A stretch of 61,331 nt of DNA, the filler included, from Bipalium vagum (Eukaryota), in the NCBI GenBank assembly GCA_037834085.1. It is 3 parts of 3 records of this genome, joined end to end, with 100 filler letters (N's around TTAATTAATTAA, not from the genome) between each part and the next. Parts side by side here need not be neighbours in the genome. Positions count along the whole stretch, not along the records: positions 1 to 15,797 come from JBBMKC010145368.1; 2 more parts are not named here. One strand, 5' to 3'. The translations under genes were made by a program, and so were the position numbers. This document shows positions 1-44,948 of this stretch, one piece after another. Within the stretch, counting starts at the first letter, position 1. Each line of letters starts with the position of its first letter. The notes under the pieces were generated by a model. It made no database searches and had not been told where the DNA came from. It saw only the letters and a list, made by a program, of their open reading frames with translations.

Positions 1-935
1 TGAGAAGAAATGTATAAAGGATATGTTCTCCATGATTTTCTTAAATGGTTTTCTTTGTTATTAATGCATTCAATTATATAAACATTTATTCTTATATTAT
101 TTTCTTTTTCAAATTTAGAAATATTATTTATTTTTATCTTCTTCATTATATTTAAAAGTAAATTCATTTTCTTTATACTAAGTTACTCTTTCTTTATGTT
201 GAGGAATTTGATTTTGCATGAAATAAGAAATTACAGACAAGATAAAACATTTATTATCTCTGTTTTGAATATTAATTAATGAAGAAGATCTGAAGGTGAA
301 GCAATAAATATAATCAATACATAACTTTATATGAGAAAAACCATCAATAATCCAACCAGATTTTTTTAATCGTTGAGAAGAATTTTCCATTTCATTTCTA
401 AACTTTCTATAATTTTTTTCATTTCTGATTTAAGATTATTTGTTGTTAATATTATTCCTACATCAGATGATATTTTTACAGTAAAATATTTTGAATCAGT
501 TGGATGAAAAAAGCATTTAAATTTATTGAAAATTTTAAAGGTTTTAAAAGCAAACCATCGTCAATTTTATAAAATATAGATGTTTTAATTTCAGGAATAA
601 TGTTATATAAATAATCTTTAATATCATTTCCTTCAAATAATTTGTTAGAAATTTCATGATTATAAAATTATATTATAAAACTGTTCTTTCAAAGAAATAT
701 TATGTTTTTCATGATATTCTTCTAAACTTTCAAGTTTATTTGGATTATAAGCACAATATTTTTGATGAGAAATATTAGCTGCAACTGTTCTAAAAATATC
801 CACAAAAATTATATTGTTTTTATGGTATTTAAATTTGATTCATTTTATCAATATGTGTTTTAGATTTTTTATGAGAAATTAAAGCTTAGATATTTTGAAA
901 ATCTCTATCACATATTTCACAATGATTTCAATTCA
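1..935 (-). pseudogene. Protein-primed family B DNA polymerase (pPolB), N-terminal part, outer Polinton
   Basis: Starts with a C2H2 finger (CEICDRDF...SHKKSKTH), then SGWIIDGF...INIQNRDNKCFILSV (ORF 178-390) and YPLYIS near base 1-30. Same motif order as the inner pPolB (GWIIDKY, VNIKTHNKCFQYC). Contains stops and frameshifts. Confidence 0.8.
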
Positions 936-979
936 TTTTTTAGAAAAAAAATTAATTTTAAAATTTTTATTCTTTGAAC

Positions 980-1364
980 TTACCCTTTTGTTTTAGTTTC
1001 AAAATTAAACATTTTTCCTCCTTTTAATTTTATTTCCATAAATTGTTCTTGTAAAAAAACATTTATTTTTCCTAAAAACTTATCTTTTAAAATATGTAAA
1101 GTTACAACTGTCCCATTAATACATAAGTTTTGCTTGGTATTTTAAATCAAATAAAAATCTAGAATATAAATTTTGAAATTCTAATAAACTTAATTGAGAG
1201 TCGGAAGCATAGCTTTTAAGAGCTTTGCTCATATTTTAAAATAATTTGCAAGCTTTTACATAATTCGAATAAGTTCGATAATTTTTTCTTTTTTCAAATT
1301 GAATCCAATTTATAGGATAATATGAATTATTAACTTGAATTCTTAAAGATTTTACTTTATCTTG
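980..1364 (-). pseudogene. Polinton major capsid protein, C-terminal part (split from the N-terminal part by the Gypsy insertion)
   Basis: Reads QDKVKSLRIQVNNSYYPINWIQF...RTYSNY. Removing 1365-12199 and one TCTTG copy restores NNSLFIQ-DKVKSLRIQVNNSYYP in frame. Confidence 0.75.
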
Positions 1365-1429
1365 AGTTAGTTCTTCTACACTAAACATTGAAAAGATGTC
1401 AGAGTTATAAAAAGTATTTATTTAAACAA
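1365..1429 (-). repeat. Gypsy 3' LTR remnant (5' part lost in a deletion that fuses it to the integrase)
   Basis: Matches 12111-12175 with 6 mismatches in 65 bp (ACATTGAAAAGAYGTCAGAGTTATAAAAAGTATTTATTYAAACAA core) and abuts the TCTTG duplication. Confidence 0.88.
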
Positions 1430-1744
1430 TAATGACAACCATGTATTTGTAGTGTGCCGCTGCTTTTTCCATAAATGCTATATCTACCACGATCTGCTCT
1501 AAGAAATGTGAGCTTCTTCTCGGGATTAGGATTTCTTTACTGCGCGTTTGATCAATTTTTCTCTTGGCACAAACGTCACAGGTTTTTAAACATCGTTGGA
1601 CTGAATTCCACATCAATTCCAAGCATTGAGAGTATACTACATGGGAAATTCTGGATAGGCCATCAGCGTTACAATGATCTTGGCCTTTTCTGTACCTCAA
1701 TTCAAAATTATATTCTGATAGATTGGCTAGCCAAGTTTGAAACT
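1425..1744 (-). pseudogene. Gypsy pol: end of RNase H plus truncated integrase (Zn-binding CxxC, first catalytic Asp)
   Basis: QFQTWLANLSEYNFELRYRKGQDHCNADGLSR; CDVCAKRK; FLEQIVVDIAFM...YKYMVVII. Confidence 0.9.
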
Positions 1745-1750
1745 GTGGAC

Positions 1751-1880
1751 ATTATGTATGTAACATTAGACCTTGAACCCGGACCTCAAATTCTCACACA
1801 GAGATAAATATTAAAAATACCAAGTTACCAAAATAACAAAATACTTTTACCTTATATTTATTTATTTTTATAAAAAATGG
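1751..1880 (+). repeat. Left terminal inverted repeat of the inner Polinton
   Basis: GTATGTAACATTAGACCTTGAACCCGGACCTCAAATTCTCACACAG...ATTTATTTATTTTTATAAAAAATGG is the reverse complement of 9021-9202, apart from an internal deletion of roughly 50 bp and substitutions. Confidence 0.9.
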
Positions 1881-2748
1881 TATTGTGAAATTTCTTATAA
1901 AAGTGTTTCTAAGAAAAATAAATCTCATCATTGAAGATACAAGAAAACATGAAAAAAATAAACGAAGAAACAATGATATCAACGATAACAACGAAAAAAC
2001 AATGAGAAAACAACGAATAAAAACAACGACATCAATAAATAAACAACGATTGAAAAGATTCAAGAAAAATATCCATCTTTTTTTATAATAACCGGTGGTG
2101 ACATTCAATCAGCAATAACAAATAATAAATTTTTTAAGAAATTTACTACAGGAAAATATCCAGGAGAATTACATCTTAGATCTTTAAACCCTTTTAACAA
2201 TATAAATCCAACTCATTCATTTACGGGGCCTGGCTCGAATATTGATAAAAGATTAGAAAACTATAATGAAATAATCAATAATTATAATGAAACGGGTAAT
2301 TTAAACACTCCTCCAATTCCTAAACCAGATTCAATACCAATAAACAGAGTTGATCAAGCTGTAAGGAAACATGATGTAAAAGGCATATCAAAAGATTTAA
2401 AAGATCGTCATGTTGTAGACATAGAAATGATACATGAAATGAACAATATTGAAGACCCTACTCCAAGAGAAAAATTAGAAAGAGCTTTAGTATAATTAAT
2501 TATGAAAGGGAAGGTATTGTTTAGACAAGGCATACCAAAGATACTAGGGCCAAAGGCTCGCTTAACGAGAAGCAAAGAATTTAGCATCAGAAAAACTATA
2601 TGAAAATTCCAAAGTACTTCCTCCAGAAAAAAAAGAGCAATTAGCCAAAGAATTACATAAAGAATTTAGAAAATCTAAACATTTATTGAAAGTTAGTTTT
2701 TAATAAAGATGATATTTGGTCAGCAGATTTAACATTTGTACATAAATA
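1874..2748 (+). pseudogene. C2H2-finger / low-complexity / parvovirus-VP1u-like phospholipase A2 (PLA2X-type) / retroviral-like integrase N-terminus
   Basis: KWYCEIS...; KYPGELHLRSL...HSFTGPGSNIDKRL...PINRVDQAVRKHD...DRHVVDIEMI...TPREKLERALV; then EQLAKELHKEFRK...NKDDIWSADLTFV. Frameshifted; the integrase is cut off just after the first catalytic Asp. Confidence 0.8.
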
Positions 2749-3072
2749 GTTCTATTTTAATGAAAGATTGAAAATGATACTAAAAATCCATTAATTTGTA
2801 AATATTTTTATCAATTTTTAAAATTACTAATTAAAATTTATTTATTTTTCCTATAAAAAGTCAGACAAAAAATGGGACAGTTCTTTAGAAATTTTTATTA
2901 TTGGGACAAAATTTCTAAAAAATTGTCCCAAATTTGATTTGATATTATTTTATGAAAAATTTCTATTTTGTATATTAGGGATTCAATTTGATATTATTTT
3001 AAAAGAAATTTCTCTTTCGTTTATTAGAGATATAATTGGAATTTTAAAAAATCGATATCTTATCATGAAGCT

Positions 3073-3426
3073 TTGATTATTGAAAGAATAAAAAGATGTG
3101 AAAGCAATATAAAGATTATCATAAACCAAATTACGGAATATTCTTCTTCTACATCTTTAATTCATTCGGAAAATATAAAATCCATATATTCCTGTATACC
3201 GGAAGTAAATTTATCTTTTGCAAGAGAGGTATGTGAAAATTCAAGAAATATTATTAATGAAATTGAAAATATTGTGAAAGAGGAGGAAAGAAGAAGAAAA
3301 TATGAAGAAACATTATTTAATATTTCAAAAAAGGGGCATCTTTGTAAAAAATATCTTGAACAGAAAAAAGAAAAATTTAAGAATAGAAAAAATCCATATG
3401 ATTTACGAAGAAGCATATTTAAATAA
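3073..3426 (+). CDS. Polinton accessory ORF of unknown function (predicted helical/coiled coil, basic C-terminus)
   Basis: 117-aa open frame inside the TIR-bounded element; no recognisable motif; the start codon is uncertain. Confidence 0.4.
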   Translation: MIIERIKRCESNIKIIINQITEYSSSTSLIHSENIKSIYSCIPEVNLSFAREVCENSRNIINEIENIVKEEERRRKYEETLFNISKKGHLCKKYLEQKKEKFKNRKNPYDLRRSIFK

Positions 3427-3618
3427 AAACTAATCTGATGAAAAACAAATTAACATTTTTTTTCTTCGTTATATTTACTTAATAAAGATTTGTTATTAAA
3501 TAAATTTTAGATTTATTTTGTTTTATTAAACAAATATACTTATTCAAAAATTATGATATGCTATTATTTTAAACAAATATTAAGGTTATAAAGTATTTCT
3601 CAAATATATTTATTAAAA

Positions 3619-4018
3619 ATGGAGGAAAAAACTGGACAAATTACAAAAAATAATTGATGTTGGTAAATGAAAAGTGATAACATTAAATGGTGAGAAAAAA
3701 ATTTTATCTAAAAAAATAATTAATAAAATTAAAGATAAAATTGAAGATGAGAAACAAGGTGGTGTATTACCATTATATCCAATCTTAGGTGCAATATTTG
3801 TAGGATTAGGTGCAGTAGGTGGTGTAGCAGGAGGAGTTGCAACTGCTGTGCAAAAAGTAAAAGAAGCACAAAAAACAGATTTAGAAAAAAAGAAGAAACC
3901 AAGCGAAGCTCTCAACACCAAAGGTGTACCAATAGAAGTGACATCTGGTGCTGGATTGTATTATGCCCACCTAAAGGTTGCGGAATTTACTTTGACCCTT
4001 ATTTTGGAAAGGGGTTAA
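3619..4018 (+). pseudogene. Polinton/adintovirus virion core-type protein with a Gly-rich hydrophobic segment
   Basis: EKQGGVLPLYPILGAIFVGLGAVGGVAGGVATAVQKVKEAQ...SGAGLY resembles the GGFLP-type small virion proteins of Mavericks, with GG-X / GXG protease-site-like motifs. Confidence 0.65.
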
Positions 4019-5445
4019 GAGATTTAATTTAAATAGTATAGAATATAAAAATTTTAATAAATCAGATAGAAAAGAATTAAAAGAGTTATTACAAAAGATG
4101 TCCAAAAATAAAATTTAAATAATTAAGCAAGTGAGTGGTTTGCATTCTGACAGGGAGTAGTCCTTGACAACTTCGTTGGACCCTTATATAAAAGATAAAA
4201 TATTTATTTATTTAAATTACTATACTTAATTTCCCTTTTTATTGGGGAAATTGTTGGAATTAGAACTGCTGTTATGACAGGAATACCAACATTAGGAACT
4301 AGTTTATTAATTTATAATCCAGTTGCAACATCAATTTTTGGGGCATATTTCATATTTCTCTACTACAAATGATTCACAGTTTTTACATATTTGAATTAAC
4401 TCCCTGTCTTGTGAATTATGATTATCTATATGATTTTATTTTTTGAAATTCTTTAATTATTATTTCATTTTTAATATATTTATTTTCATTAATTGTCTCC
4501 AGCTGGGAAAAATATATAATAAATATAATGAATAAATGTAAATGTGAAAATTGTAATCAAGAGTTTAAAACATCACATACATTAAGTAAACATAAAAAAT
4601 CACAAAAAAAACATTTATCTTATCTAAATTCACTTCAAGTAACTTTAGTAAATAATGCTAATTTAATGCATGACAATACTTTAATGGATGAAGATGACAA
4701 TGGTTCTCAATTTAAAATAGATGTAAAAACGTTTCATGATATTTCTTCACCAAATATTACTATAATAGAATATGAAATAAATAATAAAGATAATATAATG
4801 AATTATTTAACAAACATGTTAAATAAATTTTAAAAAATTAAATATCAATTTATAGTTAATGTTACAATAAATAATACTAGAGATTATGAATTCATTACAG
4901 AAACGATTTAATCTGATCAGATTATAAATTTAAATAGAAATATTTCAGAGGATGATATGATAAAAGGTATTTCTAATTATCAAGAATTGTTGGATAGAGA
5001 AATAGATAGAGTAAAAGGATTAGGATGGATAATTGATAAATATTATTCTATTAAAGTTAAAGTTGTAAAAATAAATTCAATAAAGGGGGGTTCTTTTATA
5101 GAATTACCTTTTAGAATTAATTGTTTTGTTAATATAAAAACACATAATAAATGTTTTCAATATTGTGTATTAGCTCATTTAAATGCCTTAAACAGAAATG
5201 TTAATGATCCAAATAGATATACTTATGATACTAAATTATTTAAGGAATTAGATGAGTCTACATCAGGAAATAAGTGGGTTTCAATTAATGATATTAAACA
5301 ATTAGAAAAAAAGATAAACATACCAATAAATGTATATGAATTAATGGGTAAGTGGAATGTAAGAGAAAACTATAAAACAGATTTAATATATTATTCAGAT
5401 TTGAATGAGAAATTAAATAAACAGTCTATCGACCTTTTATTACTA

Positions 5446-5585
5446 TCCAACAAAGTTGGAATTCCTTCGGAAACATATGGCAAAGCCATCAATACCTTCG
5501 GTCAATCCAACAAAGTTGGAATTCTTTCGGAAATATCAAAGAATAATAAAGGTTTTCTTTCAGTCAATAATGAACGAAGTGAATA
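5446..5585. repeat. Array of triloop mini-hairpins inserted in pPolB
   Basis: TCCAAC-AAA-GTTGGA (5446-5460 and 5506-5520), TTCC-TTC-GGAA (5462-5472), ATGGC-AAA-GCCAT (5477-5489), ACC-TTC-GGT (5494-5502), followed by decayed copies. Confidence 0.85.
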
Positions 5586-6185
5586 ACTCAATTATCATTA
5601 TGTTTTATTTAAAAATTTTGAAAGACATGCGTGGTGAAATGGTGTATAAATTACGTCCAACTCAGGAATTACATTTTTGTAAGAGATGTCTGAGTTATCA
5701 AACAACTTTAGTAGCTCATGAGAATCACAAAAGATTATGTATAAATCATAAACCAGATAAGATAAACATGCCTAATACTAAATTCAATAAATTTAGGGGA
5801 TATAATAATAAAATTTTAAAATTTAGTAATTATTCAAAAATGATTAGAGTACCATTTATTATAGTAGCAGATATTGAAAGTGTTAATTTACCTTTTCATA
5901 ATGTAAAAAATAAAGAACAAAATACGTAAGTAAGGATGATTCACCTAAGTTGACTTTAAAAAGTAAAGATCACAAAGTGACGCCAACGTCGTTAGATCTC
6001 TTTAATCAAGTACCCTCGTGCATATATGCAAAATTAATTTCTTAATATCCAGAATTAAAAGAGAATGAAAATATTTTATTTACAGGAGAATACTGTGAAA
6101 AGGATTTTGTTAAGTGGATAAATGAAAAGGAAATAGAATTAAGTGAGTTATTAAAAAAAATATAAAAATAAATATGAGTGAAGAA

Positions 6186-6248
6186 GATCCAACAAAGTTT
6201 GCTTTACAAAGTAAAGATCCAACGAAGTTGGCTTTACAAAGTAAGGAT
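6186..6248. repeat. 2 x 30-bp tandem repeat built from two mini-hairpins, in frame in pPolB (DPTKFALQSK-DPTKLALQSK)
   Basis: CTTTAC-AAA-GTAAAG (6202-6216) and CCAAC-GAA-GTTGG (6219-6231); a decayed relative lies at 5925-5995. Confidence 0.85.
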
Positions 6249-7229
6249 GAGGTTAATTTTAATAATACGTCCACATGTATATATTTTAATAAAAGTTTAC
6301 AACCGCAAAATATAAATCAAAATTTAGAGATCATGATCACTCCAATGGTAAATATAGAGGTTCGGCTCATTATGCATGTAATTTATTAGCTAAGAAACCA
6401 TCTCATTTGCCCATTTATTTTCATAATGGAAGTAAATATGATTTTCATTTAATTATAAAAGAGTTAGGTGAACAAGCAATTCATAAAATTGGTCCTATAC
6501 CTTTAACAGATGAAACATATATTAGTTTTAAGTATGGATTTATTCAATTTATGGATTCTTTAAAAATTTTTCAATCAAGGATTGATGATGTTGCTAAATC
6601 TATGCCAAATGAAAGTTTTATAGAATTAAAAAAGAATTTGATTGTAGTTTTAAAACATTTGAATTTCAAGAACAGAAAATAGAATTAAAATGCAGTCTCA
6701 TAATAATTTTAGGAAGTTTAGTTTATTAAATCAAAAGCAATTATATCCTTATGAATATATAACTTCCTTTGAAACATTAAATGAAACAGAAATACCTCCT
6801 AAAGAAACTTTCTGGACTAGATAAAAACAAGAACATATTTCAGATGAAGAATATCAAAAAGCTAAAGCTATTTGGAATGAATTCACATGTAAAACTTTAT
6901 GGGATTATACGATAGTTTACTTAAAACAAGATGTCTCTATTTTAGCCGATGCTATTGAAAGCTTTAGGAACTTATTTCCATTAGACCATTGTCATTATGT
7001 TTCCTCTCCATCATTAAAATTTGATTGTGGTTTATTAAAACTAAAATTGAACTAGAGTTATTAACTGATCAGTCAATGTATGAAATGTTGGAGAAAGGAA
7101 TTAGAGGAGGTATTTCTGGAGTACAAGGAAAGAGACATGTTATAGCAAACAATAAGTATACTAATCCACTAATGTTTTATTTTTTAATCTCAGTACAATC
7201 CATTATACCTCCTCCTATTTTTATTTCTA

Positions 7230-7794
7230 TTCGAAATAAAATCAAAAAATGGTAAATCAAAGAATGATTGTGATAAGTATATTACTGAACATTTATTATG
7301 TCTTCCTCTCGTAAAATACATATCCATGCGAAGTGTGTTATTAAACGACGTGTTATTAAACGGGTTTGACTGTATATTGTTTTTTTCATTTATTATATCA
7401 TCAAAAATTATTAAACTTTTTCGATTTTTTTCTAATTCATTTGGTGGAGGAATTTCATTTGCTTTATCACTTAATGTTACCCTTATTTGTCTTTGTTTAT
7501 ACTCATAGCCTTGCTCATGAAATTTTATTTTCTTTTTTCTATAAAAATTTGATAAACATTTTCTTTTGAAAATCCATAATTAAAATACTCTTATATATTT
7601 AAGTGCTGGTTGAAGTAAAACAGTTTTTAAAAAAATAATTAAGTTATCATAATCAATATAGTTAGGAGTTAATAACATTTTATATAACTCTGTTTTTCCA
7701 GAACCAGAAGGACCAATAATTAACATTCTAAATATTGAAGGTAAATTTTTATAGAATTATCATTTAATAAATCAGAACAAAAGTTTTCATCCAT
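7230..7794 (-). pseudogene. A32/FtsK-like genome packaging ATPase
   Basis: FRMLIIGPSGSGKT (Walker A, 7714-7691); SLIIFDDI (Walker B, ~7415-7395); YFTRGRHN...VIYLSQSFFDLP. C-terminus truncated against the pPolB deletion. Confidence 0.9.
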
Positions 7795-7811
7795 TTTTTA
7801 AAATTAAATTT

Positions 7812-8589
7812 TAAACTTGTTTTAAATGAATTGTAAAACTTACATCTTCTCCAGTAAAATCTATAAATTCCCCATCTTCATCTTTAATTTTAAAAATTTA
7901 TTTCATTAATATTTTTCATCATTAAAGGAAAATAATTTGGAAATTTTGGTCTTTAAATTATTCTAGATCCTCTTGCAACATTGTTTGAAGGAAAATCAAA
8001 AATATTATTTGTTTTTCTCCCATTAAAAAAATCCCACATTTGCAATATTACATTCAATCATAATTCTATTTATTTTTTGTAATTTTAACTGTTTTAGATT
8101 CATGATTTCCTTCCTTATAAGTTTCATTTAATTCGAATCACCTAATGAATTTTCCTTAGGAAATGAAACACTACACCCTTTTTCTATTTTCATTATACAG
8201 TTTAAAGAAATTGGATTTGATTTTATTTGTATATAAAACTGTTTATCTTTTAAAGGTTCTAAATCTTCATCATCTTTAAATTCATTCTCTATATATTTTG
8301 ATATTTCAGAAATTTTGTATGTTCCCGGATTTAATTTCAATTTCATAGTTTTATTCTTTCCTTTAGAATCTGTCACAGTTACATCTATTCTATTATTTCT
8401 TTCTGTAATATTAAAAATAGAATTATAAGTTGAAAAATAATCTACAGCTAATTCATAGTTTAAATTTGAATCAAGAATTAGAGGAGTTTCAAACGTGTAA
8501 GTTATATCTGATTTTTTAGTTTCTACCATAAATGATGTTCAAAATTTATTTGATAATTGATTTGATATTTGTTTTAAGGTATCATCCAT
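7812..8589 (-). pseudogene. Polinton minor capsid protein (penton-like single jelly roll)
   Basis: FETPLILDSNLNYELAVDYFSTYNSIFNITERNN...LNPGTYKISEI; after frameshifts, CNI...NYFPL...INFKIKDEDGEFIDFTGEDVSFTIHLKQV*. Confidence 0.85.
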
Positions 8590-8599
8590 TTTAAAAGAA

Positions 8600-9024
8600 A
8601 AAATATAAATTTGAGAACAAAGTCCAAATTTCGAGTAAAGATCTCATTTAATCAGAATCTATATCAAATTTAACAAGTATTTTTTCATGTGTCTTTGGAT
8701 TAATTTTATTTTGTTCGATTTTGTTTGTTTATTTTATTCACGAATATACCAATCGATATTAATAATATTTTCTTGATTAACATCATTTTGTTCATTTTTA
8801 CTTTGTTGGTTTCCATCTTTTTGATTTTCTAATTTAACAGACAATGTTTTTGTGGTTAGTGCATTAGTAACTGGTTTATGAAATATTGTTAAATCTTGTT
8901 CTAAACCTCTTTCTGCTCTCCATTGATTTAATTGGTCAGTTTCAAATTATTTTTTTGCAACAATTAATTCTTTTAACATTCTTATTTCTCTTTGTATATA
9001 ACTTTCATTTTTATTCGATTCCAT
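8600..9024 (-). pseudogene. Polinton terminal ORF of unknown function
   Basis: ATG sits at the inner edge of the right TIR; MESNKNESYIQREIRMLKEL...LEQDLTIFHKPVTNAL; several stops. Confidence 0.5.
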
Positions 9025-9202
9025 TTTTTATAAAAATAAATAAATATAAGATAAGATAAAAGTATTTTGTTATTATGACAAGTTGGTATTTTTGAGAATT
9101 TCATACTTTGGTATGTCGTAATTTGGTAATTTGTTATTTTTTATTTTTCTCCCTGTGGGAGAATTTGAGGTCAGGGTTCAAGGTCTGATGTTACATACTA
9201 CT
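9021..9202 (-). repeat. Right terminal inverted repeat of the inner Polinton
   Basis: Ends ...TTACATACTACT (AGTAGT terminus on the minus strand, typical of Polintons), immediately followed by GTGGAC. Confidence 0.9.
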
Positions 9203-9208
9203 GTGGAC

Positions 9209-10990
9209 TAATTGGGTTCTTCGTGGTTTTCATAAAAACCAAAGCTTTATGATAAATTCTCAAAATGAATTGTTTTCCATATACAGTGATGGTAAAAAGT
9301 CTTGCATCACCCTAAAAATCTAGATACTGCGTGAAATGGAGAAAAAATTCATAAATTGATAACAGCTCTTTTCTGGTGACACAATATCCCAATTCATGGG
9401 TAGATAAGTGAGATAGAGGCATAAGCAATAACTGTTTCACTTTCATCTTCCTTCAGCTGACTCAAAACAGATTCAATCGCTCCAAAGCTTGCATCTGTAT
9501 CCAATATAAAAACACGATCTCTGCTTGGAAAACCCAGAATGATGCTTGACATAGTTTATCCTTCAGTGCTTGGAAACTATTCTGGCATTGTTCTGTCCAA
9601 TGAAGCTGTTTATCGGCACCTGATATAGCAGCATATAAGGGCGCTGCTACTTCGGCATAATGGGCAATAAAACGTCGGTAATAGTTTTTCAACCCAAAAA
9701 ATGATCTCAACTGAGACACGCAACCCGATGGTTTCGCTTTCACTATTTCTTCAATCTTCTTCTTGTTAGTTCTGACTCCATTGGCACTTTGTGTCCCAGA
9801 AAAGCCAACTCTCGTTGATGAAATTTGCACTTTGCTGGATTAACCTTCAATCCAGCCTTAGCAATCCGCTTCAAAACAACCTTCAAAATGATGTTGTGTT
9901 CTTTTTCTTCTGGACTGTATATTAGAATATCATCTAAATATATATATCATCTGAACAGCAAACCATCAAGCAATTCATGCATCAGTTTCTGAAAGGTAGC
10001 AGGCGTCATTGCCAGTCCGAAAGGCATCCGGTTGAAGCAAAATTGGCCTTGTTTGGTGCTAAATGCTGTAATTGATTTAGCATATCCGTCAATTCCATTT
10101 GGTATAGGCTTGGCCCAGATCTATTGACGAAAAATATTTTGAATCAGCCAAGCAATCCAGCAGTATTTGCATGTTTGGCATCCGGAACGTGTATTTTTCT
10201 GTTATGGCGTTTACACGTCTGAAATCCACGCAAATTCGGATAGATCCATCCATCTTCCCGACAACCACCATCGGGGAGTTCCATGCACTTTTACATTTGG
10301 AAATGACACCGGCAGCTAAAAGTTGAGTAATCATCTCATCAACTTTAGGTTCATATACATTGCTTGTCTTCGTGGTGCCTGTGCAATAGGTGGGCCGGTA
10401 ACGATTATGTCGTGTTTAACCAATCCGATGTGTCCAATATCAAATGAATGGGTCATGAATATTTTCCCATATCGTAGTAACATATTATGCAATAGTATAC
10501 TGGTTTGATTATTGACTTCCATCATTACTTGATTTCCCCTATCTATGTCAGATATTTTCTTAATCAAGTCTGATGACTCAATATTATTTACCACACACAG
10601 TTGAATGAAAATTCTTCATAATGTCGACACCTCCAAAAAGTCGGGCTGCAGCTTCTTCACAACAATAATATCAACTTCGATCTCCTTTCCCTTCCAAGAG
10701 ATATTTACTTTGAACGATCCAAGTGGTCCTTCTCCTCCAGACGAAAATACGTCACCCAACAATATTTTTCTTTCCACTAGACGTGGATTCTGAAGTTTGT
10801 TCCAACAATTTTCGTTCATCACAGTAACTGAAGCTCCGGAATCCCACAACATTTTGATCTTCATACCTCTTATCTTCATCCAACTCCACTGTCTACCATC
10901 CGCTGTCGCGAACATCTCAGCATCTGACACATTCCGATTTTGTGATGATCTTAATGATTCAACCCCACAGACGAAATGTTTGCAATGAGG
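9209..10990 (-). pseudogene. Gypsy pol: aspartic protease, reverse transcriptase, RNase H
   Basis: LWDSGAS; WNSPMVVV...IRICVDFRRVN; FSSIDL; NRMPFGL; YLDDILIYS; LRSFFGL.NYYRRFI; ILDTDAS; YCVTRKELL. Frameshifted. Confidence 0.95.
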
Positions 10991-11019
10991 TCGGCCTGGT
11001 TTTTTTCTTCATCTGATTC

Positions 11020-12095
11020 ATAAGCATCGTCTTGGTTTTGTGAATCATCTTCTTGGAATTCTCGGATTTGAATTCAATATCGGTCATGAATGGAAAAGGT
11101 GCCCATCTTTTCCACAAATCAGACATTTATTTTTCAGTTGACAATGCATTCGCACATGATCGTCACCACCGCAGCAAAAACATTGATTCGACCGTAGATA
11201 TTCATCTCGTGGTGCTGGAATACCTTTAAATCTGTTGTAAAATCGTCTGGCTATATGTTTGGTAGAGAATTGTGGAGCTTCTCGTTGCTCTGAATATGTT
11301 GGTCTATCTTCTCGTCTTTGTTGTCTTTTAAATCAGTCATCTCTTCGATATTCTTTCTGTGCTTCTTTAATTATTGAAGCAGATGTCAAATTTCTCCTTT
11401 GAGTAACTCGATTGTACACAGATGTATCAGCACGTTTCAGCACGTTTCAGCTGAAAATCTTTGGGAAAATTTTTTTGAACTGTTTCTGCAAAGCTTCTTT
11501 GTCTCACGACATTGACTTGAAATTCTTTCTTCTGATCCATTTTTGACTCCCGTGTTTTATATAGTTTGGCCATAGCTCTAATATCTTCGACTTTGACGTT
11601 CGGTTTCGAAACAAAAGCATCTCGAAGTTCAGCACTTCTAGCTCGTTTTGTTATAAATTCGGTAATGATCTCTTCCTGGGACAATCCAGAATTAAAGATG
11701 TCATTCATTAAATTCCGAATACGAATCTTAAAAGTTGCAAATCGTTCATCGGAATTTTGTCTAACTTCTGACAATTCGCAAATTAAATCGGTTATTGGTT
11801 TCTTCTCCATAAATGTGTCAGGAAACCACGACTTGGCTTCTTCTTTTGTTGTTGCTTCTGTCTTGAAATTCTTCCATAAGATTGAGGCTTCGTCGGATAA
11901 TAGCAAATCAGATACGCCGACAAGGCATAAGTCATTTATACTGAGCCATTCCTCAATATCTCAACCATCTGTCGGCTTCAGTAGAGCTTCTGTCGTTACA
12001 TCGTTTGATTTAAAATCCCAAAATTTCCTGTGCATTTTTGGTAACGCATCCATAACTAGTTTTTTTTTCATGCTTCTAGTTATAGCATGTACATT
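11020..12095 (-). pseudogene. Gypsy gag with two zinc knuckles
   Basis: ORF 11427-11906 (capsid-like, QNSDERFATF); CFCCGGDDHVRMHC and CLICGKDGHLFHD at ~11090-11185. Confidence 0.85.
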
Positions 12096-12100
12096 TTCGG

Positions 12101-12111
12101 TGTGGTCACCA
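12101..12111 (-). promoter_or_regulatory. Primer binding site (TGGTGACC..., tRNA-Trp-like)
   Basis: Directly follows, and overlaps by one base, the 5' LTR end ...ACTAACT. The first 8 nt complement the usual eukaryotic tRNA-Trp 3' end (GGTCACCA). Confidence 0.65.
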
Positions 12112-12199
12112 GTTAGTACTTCTTTACTACACATTGAAAAGACGTCAGAGTTATAAAAAGTATTTATTCAAACAAAACATAATTACGTAACACGTAACT
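12111..12199 (-). repeat. Gypsy 5' LTR (89 bp, AGTTA...TAACT)
   Basis: Bounded by the TCTTG duplication and the PBS; contains AATAAA; matches 1365-1429. Confidence 0.88.
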
Positions 12200-12690
12200 T
12201 CTTGAATAAACAAACTATTATTTTTATAAAATTAAACTCAGCTTCTCTAAAAGCTATAAAAATATAAATTGGTTTATTTGGGATATGTTATAATTGTAGA
12301 GTTTGAGTTGTTTCTTCAGTAAGATTTCTTTCCTTACAATGTCTCGATAAAAAGTTTATGTTGATTGATTTTCCACCATCTATTCTTGATAATAATTTTA
12401 ATTCAGGAATTAATAGTTTTAAATCAATTAATTTTATTTTTGCACCTCCCTTTGTTCCTAAAAATATTTCTTTATCGATATCATTTCTTCGAGTAAATGT
12501 TAATTCTCCTCGCATATTATAAATAACTTTAACATAAAATTGTAAAATTCCAATTATTTTAATGGAAAGTCACAAGTAAATTTATTATTTGAATAATTGT
12601 TTTCTTTTCTTATATACTTTATTGTCCTTAGTTTCATCTTCTTTAATTTTATCTGGAATCCAACCAAATGTTTATCAATCATTATAAAAT
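12200..12690 (-). pseudogene. Polinton major capsid protein (double jelly roll), central part
   Basis: GWIPD...KFTCDFPLK...YVKVIYNMRGELTFTRRND...IKLIDLKLLIPELKL...ININFLSRHC...KPIYIFIAF...NNSLFIQ. Confidence 0.8.
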
Positions 12691-12699
12691 TTGTAATTG

Positions 12700-13262
12700 A
12701 ATTACTTCATCAAAATTAAATTCAACCCACTGTTTAAAAAATTCTTAAGAGCATCCTAAATATTTTATTAAACTTTCTGAATTACCTTCTTTTAAATTTC
12801 CTGATATGCTATGATAAACTTTATTTTTAAATCAAACATCGGGATTATTTTGATAATGATTTTTGTACCAATCATTAATTTATCTCTATTTTCATTTTGA
12901 TAATTACTTTGATATTCTAATCTTTCTTCTCTGTGATTTTGATAATAAATTGGATTTCTTTTATTATTATATTCTCTCTCACATTCTTTACATAAACTGT
13001 TGTAAGTATAATAATCTCGTTTTATTCTATATCTAAAATCTGTTATTGGCTTATTTATTTTACATTTTGTACAAACTTTATTATCTGATGATGACATTTT
13101 TCTAATATTACTTATTCTTTTTTTCTAAATAAGAAATTTCTCTAATTTTATTTTCTTCACTTTCACAATATTTACACGAATGAGAATAATATTGATTACG
13201 AATTATTTTAAAATTTTCTGAGTTTTATATTTTCACAATTTTCATATTTTCTAAATTCCATT
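12700..13262 (-). pseudogene. Zn-ribbon (CxxC...CxxC) protein related to giant-virus/phage HNH endonuclease-VII-like nucleases, nuclease core deleted
   Basis: KVCTKCKINKPITDF...SLCKECEREY...YYQNHREER; downstream KYLGCS*EFFKQWVEFNFD; a second degraded ribbon (ENCENIK...SCKYCE) at 13150-13262. Confidence 0.6.
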
Positions 13263-13289
13263 TTTAATAAAAACAATAATTATTTTACA

Positions 13290-13610
13290 AGCTATATATA
13301 TTTTATAACTTTAAAAATACTAGCAGACGTAAATTGTAAATCACCAATAACTTTTGATAAAAAGAATCCCGGATATTTTTCTTCAAGATTTTTTAATTTT
13401 TCATTGGTCGTTGTTTGAAATTTTGTTGTTTTTTTATTGATCTCGTTGTTGTCGTTGTTACTATTCGTACTTTTTAGTCGTTGTTTTTTCGTTGAAGTCG
13501 TTCTATTTTTCGTTGAATATTTTTTTCATGTTTTATTGTAACTTCATGATCACTTTTATTTTTTTTAGAAATATTTTTTTCACAAAATTCACAATACCAT
13601 TTTTCTACCC
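13290..13610 (-). pseudogene. C2H2-finger ORF paralogous to the first ORF of the inner Polinton
   Basis: VEKWYCEFCEKNISKKNKSDHEVTIKHEKN...KYPG versus inner KWYCEISYKSVSKKNKSH...KYPG; nucleotide similarity is visible (ATGGTATTGTGAA). Confidence 0.7.
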
Positions 13611-14979
13611 TTTTTTAAAAATAAAAATTTTATATTTTCATATTTTTCGTCAGTTTTCAAATTTTTAATTTTTCACAATTTCCAGTAATTTTCAATTTTT
13701 CACAGTTTTCAGCAATTTTGAAATATTTCTATTTTTCCAATTTCGTCAATTTTCAGATTTTTCAGTTTGTGCAATTTTTCAATTTTTTTGGTTTGACAAA
13801 AATTGGGTAATTTTTTAAGAAAAAAACAATAAGATTTTCATTAATATTATTTCTTTTTTGTAATTTATATGTAGTTAGGCAAACTAGACTTTGAGAAAAA
13901 ATCCCCGATCTAATTATTTGCACAAAATAACATTTAGTATTTTTTAGTTCTTTTCATTTACTTTTTAGTACTTTTATACTTTTGCTTTGCCACAAGATAT
14001 TTCGTGAAATTGTGAAATTTGCACTAAATATCATTAGCATGTTTTAGTAGTTTTGAGTGCTTTGTTTTGCACTTTTTTTACTGTTGCCAACAAAATATTT
14101 TGGGGTCTGTCCTCAAAGTCTGGTTTATATAACTAATCCTGCCTGAAAAAAATCATCTGGAAAATTTTTCCGGGACCATAAAAAATTATTTTGCAAGTCC
14201 TAATGAAAGTCATCACAACCAAGGCATCAAATAACTAGGAAACATTTGACTAAATACGTTGAACTAAGTTTAGTAGAAAATTAATGTGATTTTCGAACAA
14301 TAAAAGTTTTTTATTCTTCATTTTCCAAATTTTTCAAACTAACCTTTATTTTTTTAGAATAATTTATTTTATTTATCTTATGAACTTAAATTTCTAGAAA
14401 ACTATCAAATGAGTGTCCCTTTGGAAATTCAGCTTTAGCTCCTTTTTCATTTTCATTAAAAAATTCATTGAAAATTCGGTCTTGAAATAAATCTAATAAT
14501 ATTTCTTCTGTTAAAGGGGTTAATGTTTACCATATTTTAACTTACCTTGTTTTTTATATTATTTCATTATATTTTTGATTCAGTACTTGAAATATAATTT
14601 TATAATTATTTTTTTATTAATAATAAATATTGACATAAAGATAAAGAAATAAATTAGAGCTAATTCATCATTCAGATTCTCATTTAATAATAAAAGCTTT
14701 TATAATTTTAAATTTATATCAGATTAGTGTAGTAGAAATTTCTTATTTTCTTTTGTATATTTTAAATTAATTGGTTTAAATGAAGAAAAAGGTATTGGAT
14801 TAATTTTACGAGTTTGAATTAAAATAAATAATAAAAAAACTATGTAAAAAGGATAAGCAGAAACACCGACAGTAGTGATAAAATGAATTTTAAAAAGTCG
14901 AAGTAGTGGCAAAATGAGTAAGCACAAAGAAAATTCAAATAAAAACTTTGAAAAATCTTAAACGAAATCTCGTTTATTC

Positions 14980-26250: not shown

Positions 26251-26332
26251 GTATTTCTCGTTCGAAAAATCACAGAACCCCTTCTTGGTCAACTGTATGC
26301 CATGAAAGTGCTGAAAAAAGCATCTTTAAAAG
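26251..26332 (+). CDS. RPS6KA: p90 ribosomal S6 kinase (RSK), N-terminal kinase domain exon (82 bp)
   Basis: cag|VFLVRKITEPLLGQLYAMKVLKKASLK|gt. Confidence 0.93.
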
Positions 26333-27717
26333 GTTTTTTTATTTTACATCCTGTTCTTTCAAAAAATTTTAAAAATAATATAATTATATTATTTTGATGG
26401 TTTGACTTATTAAACATGAGACTTTCTGATAAAAAATATAATAATAAAAACGTTAGTAAGTATTTTTATTTTAGATATCAAAATATAATTTTTATTGATT
26501 AAATATTTTTATAAAAATTATAAATATAAATATTTTATAAATATATATGAAGTTATGAACCTCTTATCTCGTTATTTTGTTAGTCACAATTGATTTGGGA
26601 CAGATCTGAATGAATTGAAGATGAAAATAAATTTTATAGTGTAATTGATCTCAATAGAAATTATTGGAAATTAGCACTGTTATTATTATTATTATTATTA
26701 TTCTTTACAGAAAAAATTTTTTTCTTAATAGTTTCGTCTAAAATTATTCAGACATTAATTGATGAAAAAAATTTGATAAATGATGAAAATAATATTGATG
26801 AAATCATGAAAAGAGAAGATTTTGATCTTTTTTGTGAATGTGATAAAGAAGAACCTACGATCTCGATACACGGATATTTGTGAGAAGAAGATGATTACTT
26901 AAAATAATAATTTAACTGGTGAAGTAACAGAATATCAGCGCTAAAGAAAAGTTTTCCTCTGTCATTTACATTCGCGAATACCTTCAGGAAAACAGTCTTA
27001 GTGCTGAAATGGAATTAACTTTGTAATTGAAAATGGTATCTTAAATAGACCACAATGCTATAAGCAGTTATCCTTACGGAACTTCTTTAAAACAAATTAA
27101 ATGATATGTATGTTTAATTAGTATTTTAGAATCAATATTCTTTTTTAAAATTAATATTGCACAATAATTATTATGTAATCATACTAAGTAAATTTCTTTT
27201 AATATGTTATATCGGTTATTACGATAAATTTTCGATGTCCCGGCAATATCGTTTTAAGCAAAGTCCACTGTATATTTTTCAAAACTGTTTTAAAAAAAAA
27301 TATTTTAAATTCATTTAATCTTGAAATTATCTATAGTGAAAATGTAGGAAATATTTTAAAAATTGCTCTTACTGTAATGTGTTAACACGAGATCTTCAAG
27401 CAAATACATTTAGATATATTATACTTTTTTGTTAATCGTTTTTAAAATAATATTATTAAAAAGGAAATATAAATATAAATAATTTTCAATCAATTTATCA
27501 AAATTTCATGTTCTGAATTATATTATAAATAAACATTTTCTTCTTGAATATCATTTCCGTAATTATTTATTTATGTCTTGATGGAGTGTCATAAAATCAG
27601 TTATTAATTTTCGGAAAATTATAGTTATTCTATGATTATTTATTGAATTTGTTTAAACTATTATATTTTAATTAAAAATGTTCCGATTCTTATTTATTTA
27701 ATTTGTTTCGGTCATAG

Positions 27718-27798
27718 TTCAGGATCGCAAACGGACAAAGATGGAGCGGGATATTTTGGCTGCTATCAGACACCCATTCATAGTTACATTGCATTATG
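27718..27798 (+). CDS. RPS6KA: RSK exon (81 bp)
   Basis: tag|[27 protein letters not shown]|gt; phase matches neighbouring exons. Confidence 0.93.
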
Positions 27799-28307
27799 GT
27801 TAGGTTTCCTTTGAAAAATAGATTAATATTCAATGTGGAGAAATCAATCAGAAGTGTCTTTTGGACATTTACGCGACTTTTATACATATTTTATTCATTC
27901 AAAGCTGAAAGAGAGAAAGAGAATTATTCTATTTCCTTCTGATTTTTTAATTTTCTTTTTCTAAATTTAATATTTTTGATTTTTATTAATCTTTTTTACA
28001 TTATTATTAAAGATTTCAATTTAATTCGATTTTTTTCATATATTACTGACTCTATAGTTTTAGATCATACATTGTTTAATTTATTATATATATATATATA
28101 TGGAATATATACAAAAATTATGATAAAATAAATATTTATTCAATCATGATTATAACAACATCTAAATTTTACTTTATTATTTATATTATATTTTATCATA
28201 CATAATAATATAATTAAATTGTTAATTGATTATTAATAAATATAATTTTTCCTAATAATAATTTTTGTTTTTATTATATTTCTGTCAGTTAAAATGATTA
28301 TTTTCAG

Positions 28308-28387
28308 CTTTTCAAAATGAGGGCAAAGTCTATTTGATACTTGAATTCTTGAAGGGGGGAGATTTATTTTCTCGTTTGTCTAAAGAG
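28308..28387 (+). CDS. RPS6KA: RSK exon (80 bp)
   Basis: cag|[27 protein letters not shown]|gt. Confidence 0.93.
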
Positions 28388-28600
28388 GTAATGTTTTATT
28401 GGGCAAATATTAATTTAATTTACAAGATAAATAATATTTATTTCTCTGATTAAAATTTATTATTTATCCAGAATGAGCTAAAATAATAAAACATGCTATT
28501 AGGTTGTTTCATATGAAATTTCCTATTTAAATAGTTACTTTTTGCAAATTTTTTATAATAAAGCTGCATAAATAAATTATATTAACTTTTGAAATCCTTA

Positions 28601-29105
28601 TATTGGGTTGATTCATATAAGTTCGTGCGTTTTTAATGAAAATATTATGCGTGTTTTAGAGATAAGAATCTACCAATCAAACAAATTTTATTCAGAAAAA
28701 TAAAGATCATTATGATCAACTATCTTAATTCAACGATGGGCAAGTTGTTCGATGCCACTCCGGTACCATGCTTTATCTTTTGAAAGGAAAAATTCATAAC
28801 ATCCATTTTCAACCTGTTCTATATTCTCAAACTGTCGTCCTCTAATTAAATGAACCATTGATCGGTAAGAATAGTAATCGCTGAATAGTAATCTTGACTG
28901 AATTCAGGATGTGGTAAAATTTCAAGTCCTAATTGGGTAATTTTATTTTGGGTTACTCGCGCAGTATGCGACGACCATTATCCTGTTTCAGAAGTACCCG
29001 CTTTCTGTTGACTAAAGCAGGATATTTTATGGCTAATTTTTGGTTCATCCTATCGAGTTGAGCAGAATATAACTCAGTAGTAATGGTTTGGCCATATGGA
29101 AGTGT
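28601..29105 (-). mobile_element. Mariner 3' half with TIR
   Basis: TIR-like TATTGGGTTGATTCATATAAGTTCGTGCGTTTT at 28601; GQTITTELYSAQLDRM; LVNRKRVLL; EILPHPEFS; RHGTGVASNNLPIVE. Confidence 0.8.
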
Positions 29106-30299
29106 TTTTTTTTAATATTTTAATTTTTAAAATATTTTTTTAAATAATCTAATAAATTCTTAGAAAATATCAGGAATGACGCAAAAACTGATAAAACAAG
29201 AAATTCGCACAATTTACTAAAAAAAAGAAAATTAAGACATTCACATTTGAAACTACTAAAAACATTAATTTGGTATTCAGCAAAAGTACAGCTAATAAAT
29301 GTACCAATAGGTGATGGCGTGTGAAATTCATGGAAGGTGACGAAATTAGACTTCTTTATTTTATGTTGTAACTGTATTTTTGACAGATTTTACTTCTAAA
29401 TTTGAAATTGAGTGGTATTTATCTTTCCTGAGATATGCCACTTTCTTAGCTTCAGTGTGTTAACATTCTATGGCCAAACGATATCATCAAATTTCATTAT
29501 TTTATTTTTTGCCTTCCATTTCTCTTTCTACTGTATCTAGTATCTTAGTCGTAACTTTTCCACTCTTCTGTTCTTTTTGTTGCGTTTGACAGTATTGATT
29601 CTGCATTTGAATGAACAAGAGCCTTCCTATATCCTAGGCTCATGTCTAAGATACTAAAATAATTGATCCATGTCTAAAATTGTGAGAAATTTGCTTTTTG
29701 TTGTAACCATAAGTAATTCGTAATTTGTAATATTTAAGTAATGTAAAACGTTTGTTTTATAAATAATGATTAGAATGATTAAAAAGTAATAAACAACTAT
29801 CAACTATTTCCTTTTTAGATAATAGGCTTTTTCGAGATCATTTATTGAATATAAGCTATATTCAAGCACAGTTTAAAGTAAATTTGAACTTTTCTATGAT
29901 AGATGTGCAGCAATTGTGTTAGAACTGGTATTTATATCAAGTATAAATTCTTCATTCATATCCGAAAACCTTAATATTGAACTGGTTACCAGTGACTCTT
30001 TCAGTTCCTCAAAATCCTTATTTATGTCCGGTGCCTAAATCAATTTTTTATTATTAATTCCAAATAATTATTCCATTGCTTTTGGTTTCTTTGTTTATGA
30101 AACGGCGATATTAATGAGAATCCCAATAAACTTTAATTCTTATCAGAATTTGGTTGGGTAAACTTTAAGATAACGTATATTTTTAACTGTGTTGCTTGTA
30201 CACTGCGTGCCAAAAAATGCACATTCAGTAAATGGAATTTCTGAGCTTGTTCATATTCCAGTGTTTTTGATATTCATTAATATCTCATCCAAGACTTTA

Positions 30300-30907
30300 A
30301 TGGTGCTCTACGGTGCCTATATTTGATTGCTGAAAATTTTCGGTATTATTTTTAACTAATAAAATCAAGTAATTATTTTATTCCAAGAATTATTATGCAT
30401 TTGAAGGAATCTGGAGAGCTTTATCTATTACAACTTCTTCAAGTCGATCAAACTATCAATGCTACAAAGTATTGTGGTTAGCTTGAAAAATTTAAAGAAG
30501 AGATACTGAAAAACAACCAGAATTGCTGAACAAAAAGAATGTGATCTTCCACATGGATAATGCAAAACCACATACTGCTTTGTTGTCAAAACCAAACTAA
30601 AAGGACTTCGGTTTGGAATTAATGCAGCACCCACCGTACTCTCTAGATGTAGCTCCTTCGGATTACCACCTATTCAGATCGCTTCAAAATCACCTTGAAA
30701 ACAGCAATTCCATTCAATGAAGGATATCAAGAAGTCATTGGAGAATTTCTTTGCAGGAAAACCTCAAAGTTTTATAAGACTAAATAATGATCTTACCATA
30801 AAGTTGGCAACAATAATGGCTTTTTTTTTAATAAAATAAATATTTGGATGTTAACTTTGTATTTTAATTTGTTAAAAATAACGCAGAACTTATTTACCTG
30901 CCCAATA
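30300..30907 (+). mobile_element. Mariner 3' half with TIR
   Basis: IFHMDNAKPH; HPPYSLDVAPSDYHLFRSLQNHL; TIR-like AACGCAGAACTTATTTACCTGCCCAATA. Confidence 0.85.
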
Positions 30908-30909
30908 AA

Positions 30910-31560
30910 AACGAAAATATCATCCAGATATACTATATCCACTTTGATTTTTCCTTTCACTTTAATCTTGATTTCTTGAAATGTTCCTGGAGCTGCAGCA
31001 ATACCAAATGTCATTCTATTGAAGCCTTATTGTTCATCATTCTTCGAAAACGCACTCATTTTCTTTGAGTTTTTATCCGATTCAAAGTGGTAATATCCAT
31101 TTCATAAATTTATTAAACTAATGTAAAGTTCAGATCCCAAAGCATCTAATATTTGGTATTGGAAGTCCTTGTCTTTCCATTACCACATTTAGTGTCGTAA
31201 AGCCTAGATTGATTCGAAAGTCTTTTTTCCCTTTTTCCATATCCATATTAGCAGTCCACATTCTCGTGATCATATCTCTTATTTCAAACTTTGTAATAAG
31301 GTCTTTACACCTCTGTCGTTTGCCTTTCTCCTTCAACTGCCTCAATTCTTTGGGAATAATTGATTATGGCTCCCACAAGCTTTCATACTAGTGAAGTTCG
31401 ATCTTTTAGGTGCACCGAAACATTCTCATATTCTTCTTTTATACTTGTCTACTTCCGATACCACATAAATATTTTTCTTTAATCGCGTTAATCCTTCTAT
31501 TTCCATTCCTTGATTAGTTTCGTAAAAATTTCTTTTTCTTCTCTGATCTGCATTTTTATT
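30910..31560 (-). mobile_element. Gypsy reverse transcriptase fragment
   Basis: FRINLGFTTLN; GYYH; SAFSK; NRMTFGIAAAPGTFQ; VYLDDIFV. Abuts the mariner TIR. Confidence 0.8.
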
Positions 31561-34790: not shown

Positions 34791-34898
<108 letters not shown>

Positions 34899-38048: not shown

Positions 38049-38199
38049 AATTTCCGATTTTGTAAAAATTTTAAAAACAAAACTTAACATGACTTCACAA
38101 GTATTTGAAACTCAACTTTCACGACAATATACGTTTCTGCTACTGATGACATTTCTAATAGTTGTGAGGTTAATAAAAGAAGTTATCTAAATGCTTAAA

Positions 38200-44824: not shown

Positions 44825-44948
44825 GAAGAATAATAATAATAATAATAANNNNNNNNNNNNNNNNNNNNNNNNNNNNNNNNNNNNNNNNNNNNTTAATTAA
44901 TTAANNNNNNNNNNNNNNNNNNNNNNNNNNNNNNNNNNNNNNNNNNNN

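Follow-up and report, generated by a model that had tools for sequence, protein, structure and literature searches.

In the analysed window, a stretch of 61,331 nt from Bipalium vagum, three mobile elements form a three-level nest: an inner Polinton lies within a Gypsy element, which in turn lies within a second, different Polinton. Each of the three has suffered internal deletions and is now a fossil. The most probable explanation (about 75%) is that three independent, integrase-made insertions occurred here, in order, and that the nest probably persisted since insertion into DNA that is already dead carries no cost for the host.

Target-site duplications and split genes

The inner Polinton, 7,452 bp with TIRs and a 6-bp target-site duplication (TSD), splits the RNase H of the Gypsy element, and the two copies of its TSD, GTGGAC, at 1745-1750 and 9203-9208 (right copy), are flush with its ends. 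The Gypsy element splits the major capsid gene of the outer Polinton and is likewise flanked, flush with its ends, by a 5-bp TSD, TCTTG, at 1360-1364 (left copy) and 12200-12204 (right copy). With the element ends taken as given, flush matches like these would arise by chance with a probability of about 3.6e-4 for GTGGAC and about 4.6e-3 for TCTTG. The coordinates of the repeats and elements in the original prediction hold. Because 9 nt (ACT plus the 6-mer) are common to both sides of the inner site, the precise cut point was placed by means of the right end, ACTACT.

Both split genes can be followed across the insertions. For the Gypsy pol, one HSP ends at window position 9201 and the next starts at 1751 or 1748 in all 16 relatives (16/16), with an overlap of 2-3 residues. 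For the capsid, the alignment to the relative P0030 stops at residue 292 on the 12200 side and resumes at residue 292 on the 1364 side, continuity across the Gypsy element being read from this one full-length relative. The restored reading frames that had been predicted stand in so far as the RNase H and capsid halves align contiguously across the cuts, but stops and frameshifts lie elsewhere, and neither gene is otherwise intact. The predicted order of containment (outer Polinton, Gypsy, inner Polinton) is borne out by both TSD pairs and both split genes.

Uninterrupted copies of the families were found in contigs of public runs, for the inner site in two runs and for the Gypsy site in one. 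A skip of 7,458 nt at the inner site, that is, 7,452 + 6, is present in at least 6 contigs of run X1 and at least 1 of run X2, and skips to 12200 amount to net 10,840 and 10,841 nt, compared with the expected 10,840 nt. These values come from 15 of 466 contig joints, with joints from 1196 with sides shorter than 30 nt left out; run X2 (0.08 of words) contributes one joint.

These uninterrupted copies bear on the possibility that the nest arose during assembly as a chimera of repeats, which we regard as exceedingly improbable. The scaffold is of a short-read type with linker gaps, and among 8 of 138 pieces of run X1 at 98% identity, no contig spans either of the nested junctions (1365 and 1751); an uncovered junction is not the same as absence, and contigs drop rare variants. 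Mis-joins, however, would not create two independent TSD pairs that are flush with the termini where uninterrupted copies run through. Moreover, positions 1-15797 are free of Ns, and an exact flank contig (depth 22), which starts at 14106 with 32 letters inside, extends across the outer right end.

At 98% identity, the depth is 41 and 0 in the bins with the two left junctions (zero cover in bin 1751-1781), versus hundreds to thousands beside them; the junction sequence is thus not amplified at this identity. This argues against formation of part of the nest elsewhere, followed by movement as a composite, for example with the outer Polinton shuttling the Gypsy element. A shuttle role was indeed proposed for Polinton-like viruses (PLVs) with intergenic inserts (PMC12220804), but both inserts described here break core genes (capsid and RNase H), and such a composite origin is very unlikely. 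We infer that each insertion occurred at this spot rather than in a donor copy.

Relative age of the insertions

The Gypsy LTRs differ at 6 of 65 sites, as had been noticed originally, and the TIRs of the inner Polinton at 12 of 131. Both values correspond to 9.2% (Fisher p = 1.0), with wide intervals of 3.5-19% and 4.8-15.5%, respectively. Thus, the order of the insertions is shown, but the separate waves of integration that had been proposed are not, because the LTR and TIR divergences are equal; the clock also fits a gap. Assuming that the TIRs started identical, the Gypsy element and the inner Polinton appear to have arrived within one broad period.

The outer Polinton

The outer Polinton, all features of which are on the minus strand, runs off the left edge of the window, its second end and TSD being past position 1. 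At the left edge of the window lie a decayed zinc finger and the N-terminal part of a protein-primed DNA polymerase B (1..940; 31-55% amino acid identity in tblastx blocks shared with the polymerase region of the inner element, E 1e-7). The C-terminal piece of the major capsid, residues 292-410 of P0030, follows at 986..1364 with a stop and a frameshift, and the upstream piece at 12205..12706 corresponds to about residues 109-292 of P0030 (PF21738, E 0.005). An accessory zinc-finger ORF and the first ORF occupy 12795..13604, and the terminus at 14088..14137 is similar to the starts of the inner TIRs (0 and 1 of 2,000 shuffles reach the score).

P0030 itself is a Pfam DJR-like protein (PF21738, E 1e-25), for which no PDB match was found. 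The nearest capsid relative is 39-52% identical to the outer capsid, which carries 7 stops in three HSPs as well as frameshifts and has residues 1-108 unmatched. In a word-index search with the capsid piece none of 130 candidates passed, and a full HMMER scan with the capsid gave 3 matches. One of these, P0032, a protein with GTPase repeats, was dropped as spurious.

The Gypsy element

The Gypsy element, also on the minus strand, has the order PR-RT-RH-IN according to Pfam and its relatives, which are 77-81% identical over the matched part. The 5' LTR (12111..12199; 89 bp, termini AGTTA...TAACT) looks whole and is followed by a likely primer-binding site, which starts with TGG and overlaps the LTR by one base; truncation concerns only the 3' LTR, which is cut to its last 65 bp (1365..1429; 91% identical to 12111-12175). 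The gag gene (11084..12050; PF03732, E 1.1e-4) has CCHC-type knuckles. The protease, the reverse transcriptase and the N-terminal piece of RNase H (9209..10915) contain stops and frameshifts, and the C-terminal piece of RNase H lies with a linker at 1623..1750, the left copy of GTGGAC included. The integrase fragment at 1428..1613, about residues 728-789 of the relative P0001, is flanked by two internal deletions; compared with the relatives, about residues 603-727 and everything past about residue 790 are missing, and the HSP ends at 1428 in 15 of the 16 relatives.

The likeness to Ty3/Gypsy elements includes the order of gag, PR, RT, RNase H and IN, the LTRs, the primer site and the 5-bp TSD. 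In contrast, the termini are AGTTA...TAACT instead of TG...CA, the LTR has 89 bp, and the primer site overlaps it by one base, as in insect errantiviruses. A literature search yielded nothing on AGTTA...TAACT LTR termini.

The inner Polinton

The TIRs of the inner Polinton (left, 1751..1882, plus strand; right, 9019..9202, minus strand) are 91% identical over the 131 aligned columns. The right end is an exact ACTACT, an end motif described in PMC8097293, and at the left end one substitution and one 1-nt indel set the sequence apart. On the plus strand, the first ORF (1873..2100), of a decayed zinc-finger type, is 77% identical at the nucleotide level over 185 nt to the first ORF of the outer Polinton (13425-13604). 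It is followed by a phospholipase A2-like gene of the parvovirus type, likely of the PLA2X class (2160..2560), with a Pfam match to PF08398 (E 0.025) that is below the cut-off; its top Atlas matches (0.87-0.88) are PF08398 clusters and serve as a lead only. The segment 2620..2770 is likely an integrase N-terminal stub, with ELHK and IWSADL, which we take to be a motif of the Polinton integrase family; no integrase core in the inner Polinton matched a distant Gypsy integrase probe, which is a weak test. A hydrophobic segment at 3740..3880, seen in the translation, has no Pfam match and is likely pX-like, its resemblance to adenovirus pX being our assumption. It lies in a separate ORF, 1.2 kb from the phospholipase A2-like gene.

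Polymerase B (4520..7150, plus strand) is fragmented, and its PF03175 matches (E 7.5e-5 and 0.025) are fragments only, below the cut-off. A motif scan of the inner polymerase found no catalytic palm motifs, and Pfam scans of the polymerase fragments gave no match to an OTU domain. Two genes are on the minus strand, namely a fragmented A32-type packaging ATPase (7190..7750; Pox_A32 as best match, E 2e-4, just below the cut-off, with the Walker B region) and a likely minor capsid fragment (8131..8538; Atlas 0.97 to unnamed mollusc, arthropod and viral clusters), presumably a penton. When 1751-9202 was searched for a major capsid with P0030, no match reached E<=1; Pfam detected neither a capsid nor a protease in the 12 ORFs of the inner element that were scanned, and a C/HW motif scan revealed no clear protease. 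We read the missing capsid and protease genes as a deletion in the inner copy.

Two Polinton families and their known relatives

The comparison of the two Polintons supports two distinct families. The view that they are related but distinct, part of the original prediction, agrees with the common first ORF and the similar TIR start, on the one hand, and with the divergent polymerase (31-55% amino acid identity in the N-terminal blocks) and the different gene order, on the other hand.

Taken together, the two resemble the animal Polintons/Mavericks (adintoviruses) described in PMC8097293 and PMC8502044. The likeness comprises an end of the (AGT)2//(ACT)2 type, which the inner element has preserved intact on its right, a 6-bp TSD, TIRs, a PF03175-type polymerase, an A32-type ATPase, a DJR capsid, a PLA2-like gene and the degraded state. 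According to these papers, Polinton TIRs end in (AGT)2//(ACT)2 or (AG)3//(CT)3, most vertebrate Mavericks are degraded fossils (PMC8097293), and Alpha adintoviruses have a PF03175-class PolB with an N-terminal OTU and a PLA2X, that is, a PLA2 with a C-terminal pX-like domain (PMC8502044). However, the inner copy has only 7.45 kb, without a detected capsid, integrase core, recognised protease or polymerase palm, and in both elements the end by the first ORF starts with ATTA instead of AGTA.

Retroelements nested in Polinton-like viruses and virophages have been published (PMC12220804; PMC8547959). Ngaro elements occur in virophages of Cafeteria, and EMALEs harbour 91% of the type 1 Ngaros, a targeting of viral DNA by a retroelement (PMC8547959); retroelements are also frequent in cryptophyte PLVs (PMC12220804). 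As in those systems, an integrated virus of the Polinton class has one of its genes disrupted by a retroelement; the animal host, a Gypsy rather than a tyrosine-recombinase element, and the third level set the present nest apart. A literature search, with subscription papers mostly outside it, found no Polinton > Gypsy > Polinton nest in an animal, and no related loci with DNA context were found in viral contigs (searched with P0030 and the inner polymerase piece) or metagenome contigs (P0030 and P0001).

The precedents in Cafeteria and cryptophytes, together with two nested events at one locus, would fit a preference of one or both integrases for mobile-element DNA, like some Ngaros with virophages, such that nests recur genome-wide. 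This is improbable: only one locus is involved, and a Pfam scan of P0001 (one protein) revealed no further C-terminal targeting domain in this relative of the Gypsy element.

Host gene setting

A 100-bp linker gap (15798-15897) separates the nest from five consecutive exons of a p90 RSK kinase gene (26251..41606, plus strand), the earlier exons of which are outside the window. In the window, the nest lies upstream of these exons, across the gap, and may be in a long intron of the RSK gene. In comparisons of the kinase exons, the top named scores fall within a narrow band and belong to molluscs, an annelid, a nemertean and Macrostomum. No later RSK exons were found past a second linker gap, so that the scaffold joins are doubtful. 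Neighbouring contigs carry exons of spliced RSK and galactosyltransferase genes, and relics of mariner, IS1595-type and Gypsy elements are dispersed among these exons.

The Gypsy element and the outer Polinton, like a second Gypsy relic at about 29550-31160, occupy the minus strand and are antisense to RSK. Such an arrangement would fit a TE trap or piRNA-producing region, perhaps with an RSK precursor reading through the antisense Gypsy and outer Polinton, in which insertions are favoured and kept. Antisense orientation in introns is, however, also left by purifying selection. The main targets of piRNAs in S. mediterranea are LTR elements and Polintons (PMC8532177), and among planarian clusters those of type A show an excess of antisense LTR sequence and those of type B of Polintons; yet type A clusters are depleted of genic sequence, and piRNAs from introns are less abundant than those from exons (bioRxiv 2026.01.28.702291). 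Elsewhere in the window, mobile-element remains are limited to scattered relics amid conserved exons. The summed contig depth, which is not a copy number, is 945-38,724 over the elements versus 22 for the unique flank contig, a hint that the families are high-copy. In view of the scattered relics and these apparently numerous copies, the trap or piRNA cluster suggested originally is unsupported and improbable. Relaxed selection, invoked with it, is the default inside an already inserted element and does not need a special locus. It is likewise unlikely that the nest marks a landing zone to which insertions are targeted or in which they are selected, formed by a long intron of a conserved kinase gene that collects antisense Gypsy and Polinton copies and feeds them to the piRNA system, in a spiralian with very abundant Polintons of a lineage distant from those sampled and a Gypsy clade with errantivirus-like ends.

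Implications

Three independent insertions remain the preferred explanation. The outer Polinton would have integrated first, the Gypsy element would have landed second in its capsid gene, and a different Polinton third in the Gypsy RNase H. Survival would be likely because landing in dead mobile DNA is costless to the host, and high copy number together with selection against exon insertions would be enough to give such nests, although one given triple nest is rare under uniform insertion.

A single nest of this kind reveals no new mechanism. It is clean but ordinary, probably a product of the usual accumulation of mobile elements in an animal genome rich in repeats, and evidence of targeting or a trap, from genome-wide counts or small RNAs, would be needed to give it wider importance. 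From the nest it follows that one Polinton family remained able to integrate once this Gypsy copy was in place, and the fixed relative order of the three insertions makes it a clean teaching example. Many such nests in a full assembly could yield a relative chronology of Polinton and LTR element activity.

Structure of the nest and its junctions

The original prediction held that positions 1..14137 contain a Polinton interrupted by a Gypsy element that is itself interrupted by a second Polinton, and all six boundaries it claimed are present in the sequence. The inner Polinton (1751–9202, 7,452 bp) has GTGGAC on either side; its TIRs show 12 mismatches and three indels across 131 aligned columns, and its right end, ACTACT, has been described as the common Maverick end motif (PMC8097293, available text). 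The Gypsy element (1365–12199, minus strand) has the termini AGTTA...TAACT and is flanked on either side by TCTTG. Given the ends, the chance of such flush repeats is ~3.6e-4 for GTGGAC and ~4.6e-3 for TCTTG. Containment fixes the order of the insertions (outer Polinton, then Gypsy, then inner Polinton), as had been proposed.

At the first-ORF end, both Polintons begin with ATTA and not with AGTA (1751–1756 and 14132–14137), unlike the canonical right end of the inner Polinton; either the change arose twice in parallel, or the end motif of this lineage is asymmetric. The inner TIRs (1850–1882 and 9019–9050) reach the start codon of the first gene at each end, and therefore the two ends likely have one promoter and leader in common.

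Each half of the split genes was tested separately. The downstream piece of the Gypsy pol identified 16 relatives out of 27 candidates; in all 16, the upstream piece also aligned up to window position 9201 and the match restarted at 1751 or 1748, with an HSP overlap across the inner Polinton of 2–3 residues, the same length as the target-site duplication. The search with the outer capsid yielded a single full-length relative (P0030, 413 aa; PF21738, E 1e-25); on it, the piece ending at ~12204 matches as far as residue 292, and the piece from 1364 takes over at that residue. The predicted contiguity of the rejoined halves on their homologues was thereby borne out for pol in 16/16 relatives and for the capsid in one.

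Contigs from two public sequencing runs, X1 and X2, independently support the split genes. Among the 15 joints listed of 466, a skip of exactly 7,458 nt at the inner insertion is present in at least six X1 contigs and at least one X2 contig, and X1 contigs skip to 12200 at the Gypsy site, with a net 10,840 and 10,841 nt vs 10,840 expected. These contigs are other, uninterrupted copies of the families. The right end of the outer Polinton is bridged by an exact contig (14106–15450, depth 22); for the junctions at 1365 and 1751, no bridging contig was present among the matches listed (8 of 138 pieces). That the nest is a misassembly is the least probable of the alternatives, and movement of the composite as one unit is scarcely more probable.

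Two Polinton families and the decay of the elements

The two Polintons are distinct families, as predicted, yet related. Their first ORFs are 77% identical over 185 nt and their termini are alike beyond chance (score reached by 0 and 1 of 2,000 shuffles), whereas similarity between the N-terminal parts of their polymerases is confined to blocks (31–55% aa identity) and the gene order differs. The outer Polinton carries, on a single strand, the first ORF, a zinc-finger ORF, capsid and polymerase; the inner one carries the first ORF, PLA2, integrase stub and polymerase, with ATPase and penton facing these.

All three elements are fossils. The Gypsy's own DNA amounts to 3,377 bp; numbered on the relative P0001, its pol is missing residues ~603–727 and the whole stretch beyond ~790 as far as a point within the 3' LTR, and its six HSPs together contain 5 stops, plus frameshifts. 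A short microhomology at ~1426–1429 may have been involved in one of the deletions. The 5' LTR (12111–12199) looks whole. The outer capsid has 7 stops across three HSPs, plus frameshifts, and residues 1–108 had no match in the comparison with P0030. The inner Polinton retains its first ORF and an A32-type ATPase, likely also the integrase stub and penton, and perhaps a PLA2-like gene; its polymerase is fragmented, with palm motifs absent, and a major capsid was not detected in this element. Because of the stops, frameshifts and deletions, the in-frame continuity claimed for the rejoined genes holds only locally.

The Gypsy LTR remnants differ at 6/65 sites, the count originally given (9.2%, 95% interval 3.5–19%), and the inner TIRs at 12/131 (9.2%, 4.8–15.5%; Fisher p=1.0). 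The dating spans the Gypsy and the inner Polinton, the second end of the outer Polinton lying outside the window. Assuming that the TIRs were identical at insertion, this equal divergence makes the two ages indistinguishable. The order of the insertions stands, and the separate waves of integration that had been suggested are neither shown nor excluded.

We consider it about 75% probable that three independent integrase-made insertions produced the nest. Each would have been retained because nesting inside dead elements is neutral, and point decay and deletions would have followed. It is unlikely that the locus is a piRNA source or TE trap. The main piRNA targets in S. mediterranea are described as Polintons and LTR elements (PMC8532177), and how much TE and genic sequence a piRNA cluster contains reportedly varies with its type (bioRxiv 10.64898/2026.01.28.702291), both in the text available; this planarian literature makes the idea testable, but gives no support at the nest locus. 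A preference of integrases for TE DNA appears slightly less likely still.

Surrounding sequence

The remaining region (14138–61331) contains five consecutive p90 RSK kinase exons on the plus strand (26251, 27717, 28307, ~34794 and ~41346; span 26251–41606; introns 0.5–6.5 kb), recognized by splice signals and 15 aligned relatives. The kinase exons place the host no more precisely than as a spiralian-like animal. The exon expected before 26251 is absent from the window (best match to a 14-residue motif, 7/14), as are the first and later exons, the latter missing beyond the second gap. Downstream of this unfinished gene, on the same strand and across the linker gap, two beta-1,4-galactosyltransferase-type exons (PF13733; 45024–45326 and 50145–50333) either belong to a nested gene or reflect an erroneous join of the scaffold. 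Both 100-bp gaps (15798–15897 and 44849–44948; 44 N, a 12-nt AT linker, 44 N) adjoin TAT/TAA microsatellites and were introduced artificially as spacers of the scaffold. A third run of Ns occupies 58407–58572. A correct scaffold would place the nest inside an RSK intron of >26 kb, but the first gap separates it from the RSK exons and the later exons of that gene are missing past the second; the odds that the nest is intronic are about even.

In this region, Pfam (64 of 154 ORFs scanned) yielded three mariner matches (22673–22879, 28956–29111, and 35848–37039 with the match at 36268) and one IS1595/Merlin-type relic (49249–49509). Further mariner-like relics were recognized by eye from translations (33408–34281, 37868–38047, 39355–39704 and 53731–53904), and short direct repeats at 35412–35831 (109 nt spaced 223, 53 nt spaced 204) adjoin a mariner relic. 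A second Gypsy relic in an RSK intron (~29550–31360, minus strand; 30–42% identical to pol relatives) is older and more decayed. Summed contig depth over the elements, which is not a copy number, was 945–38,724 vs 22 on the unique flank contig and suggests that these families are abundant.

Comparison with known elements

According to the available text of the sources, Polintons occur in all eumetazoan phyla (PMC8502044), planarians included (PMC8532177), vertebrate Polinton/Maverick copies are mostly fossils (PMC8097293), and retroelements nested in Polinton-class viruses have already been published (PMC12220804; PMC8547959). The available part of a study of planarian giant Gypsy elements (PMC6431247) adds nothing on nesting. 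In the accessible portions of the literature searched, no report of the Polinton > Gypsy > Polinton order in an animal was found.

The LTR of the nested Gypsy is only 89 bp, with a 5-bp target-site duplication, and the primer site overlaps it by one base. We take the LTR ends to resemble those of insect errantiviruses, and the primer site presumably resembles a tRNA-Trp site. Multi-level TE nests are common; the present nest is real, well resolved and ordinary, and its Gypsy could belong to an under-described clade.
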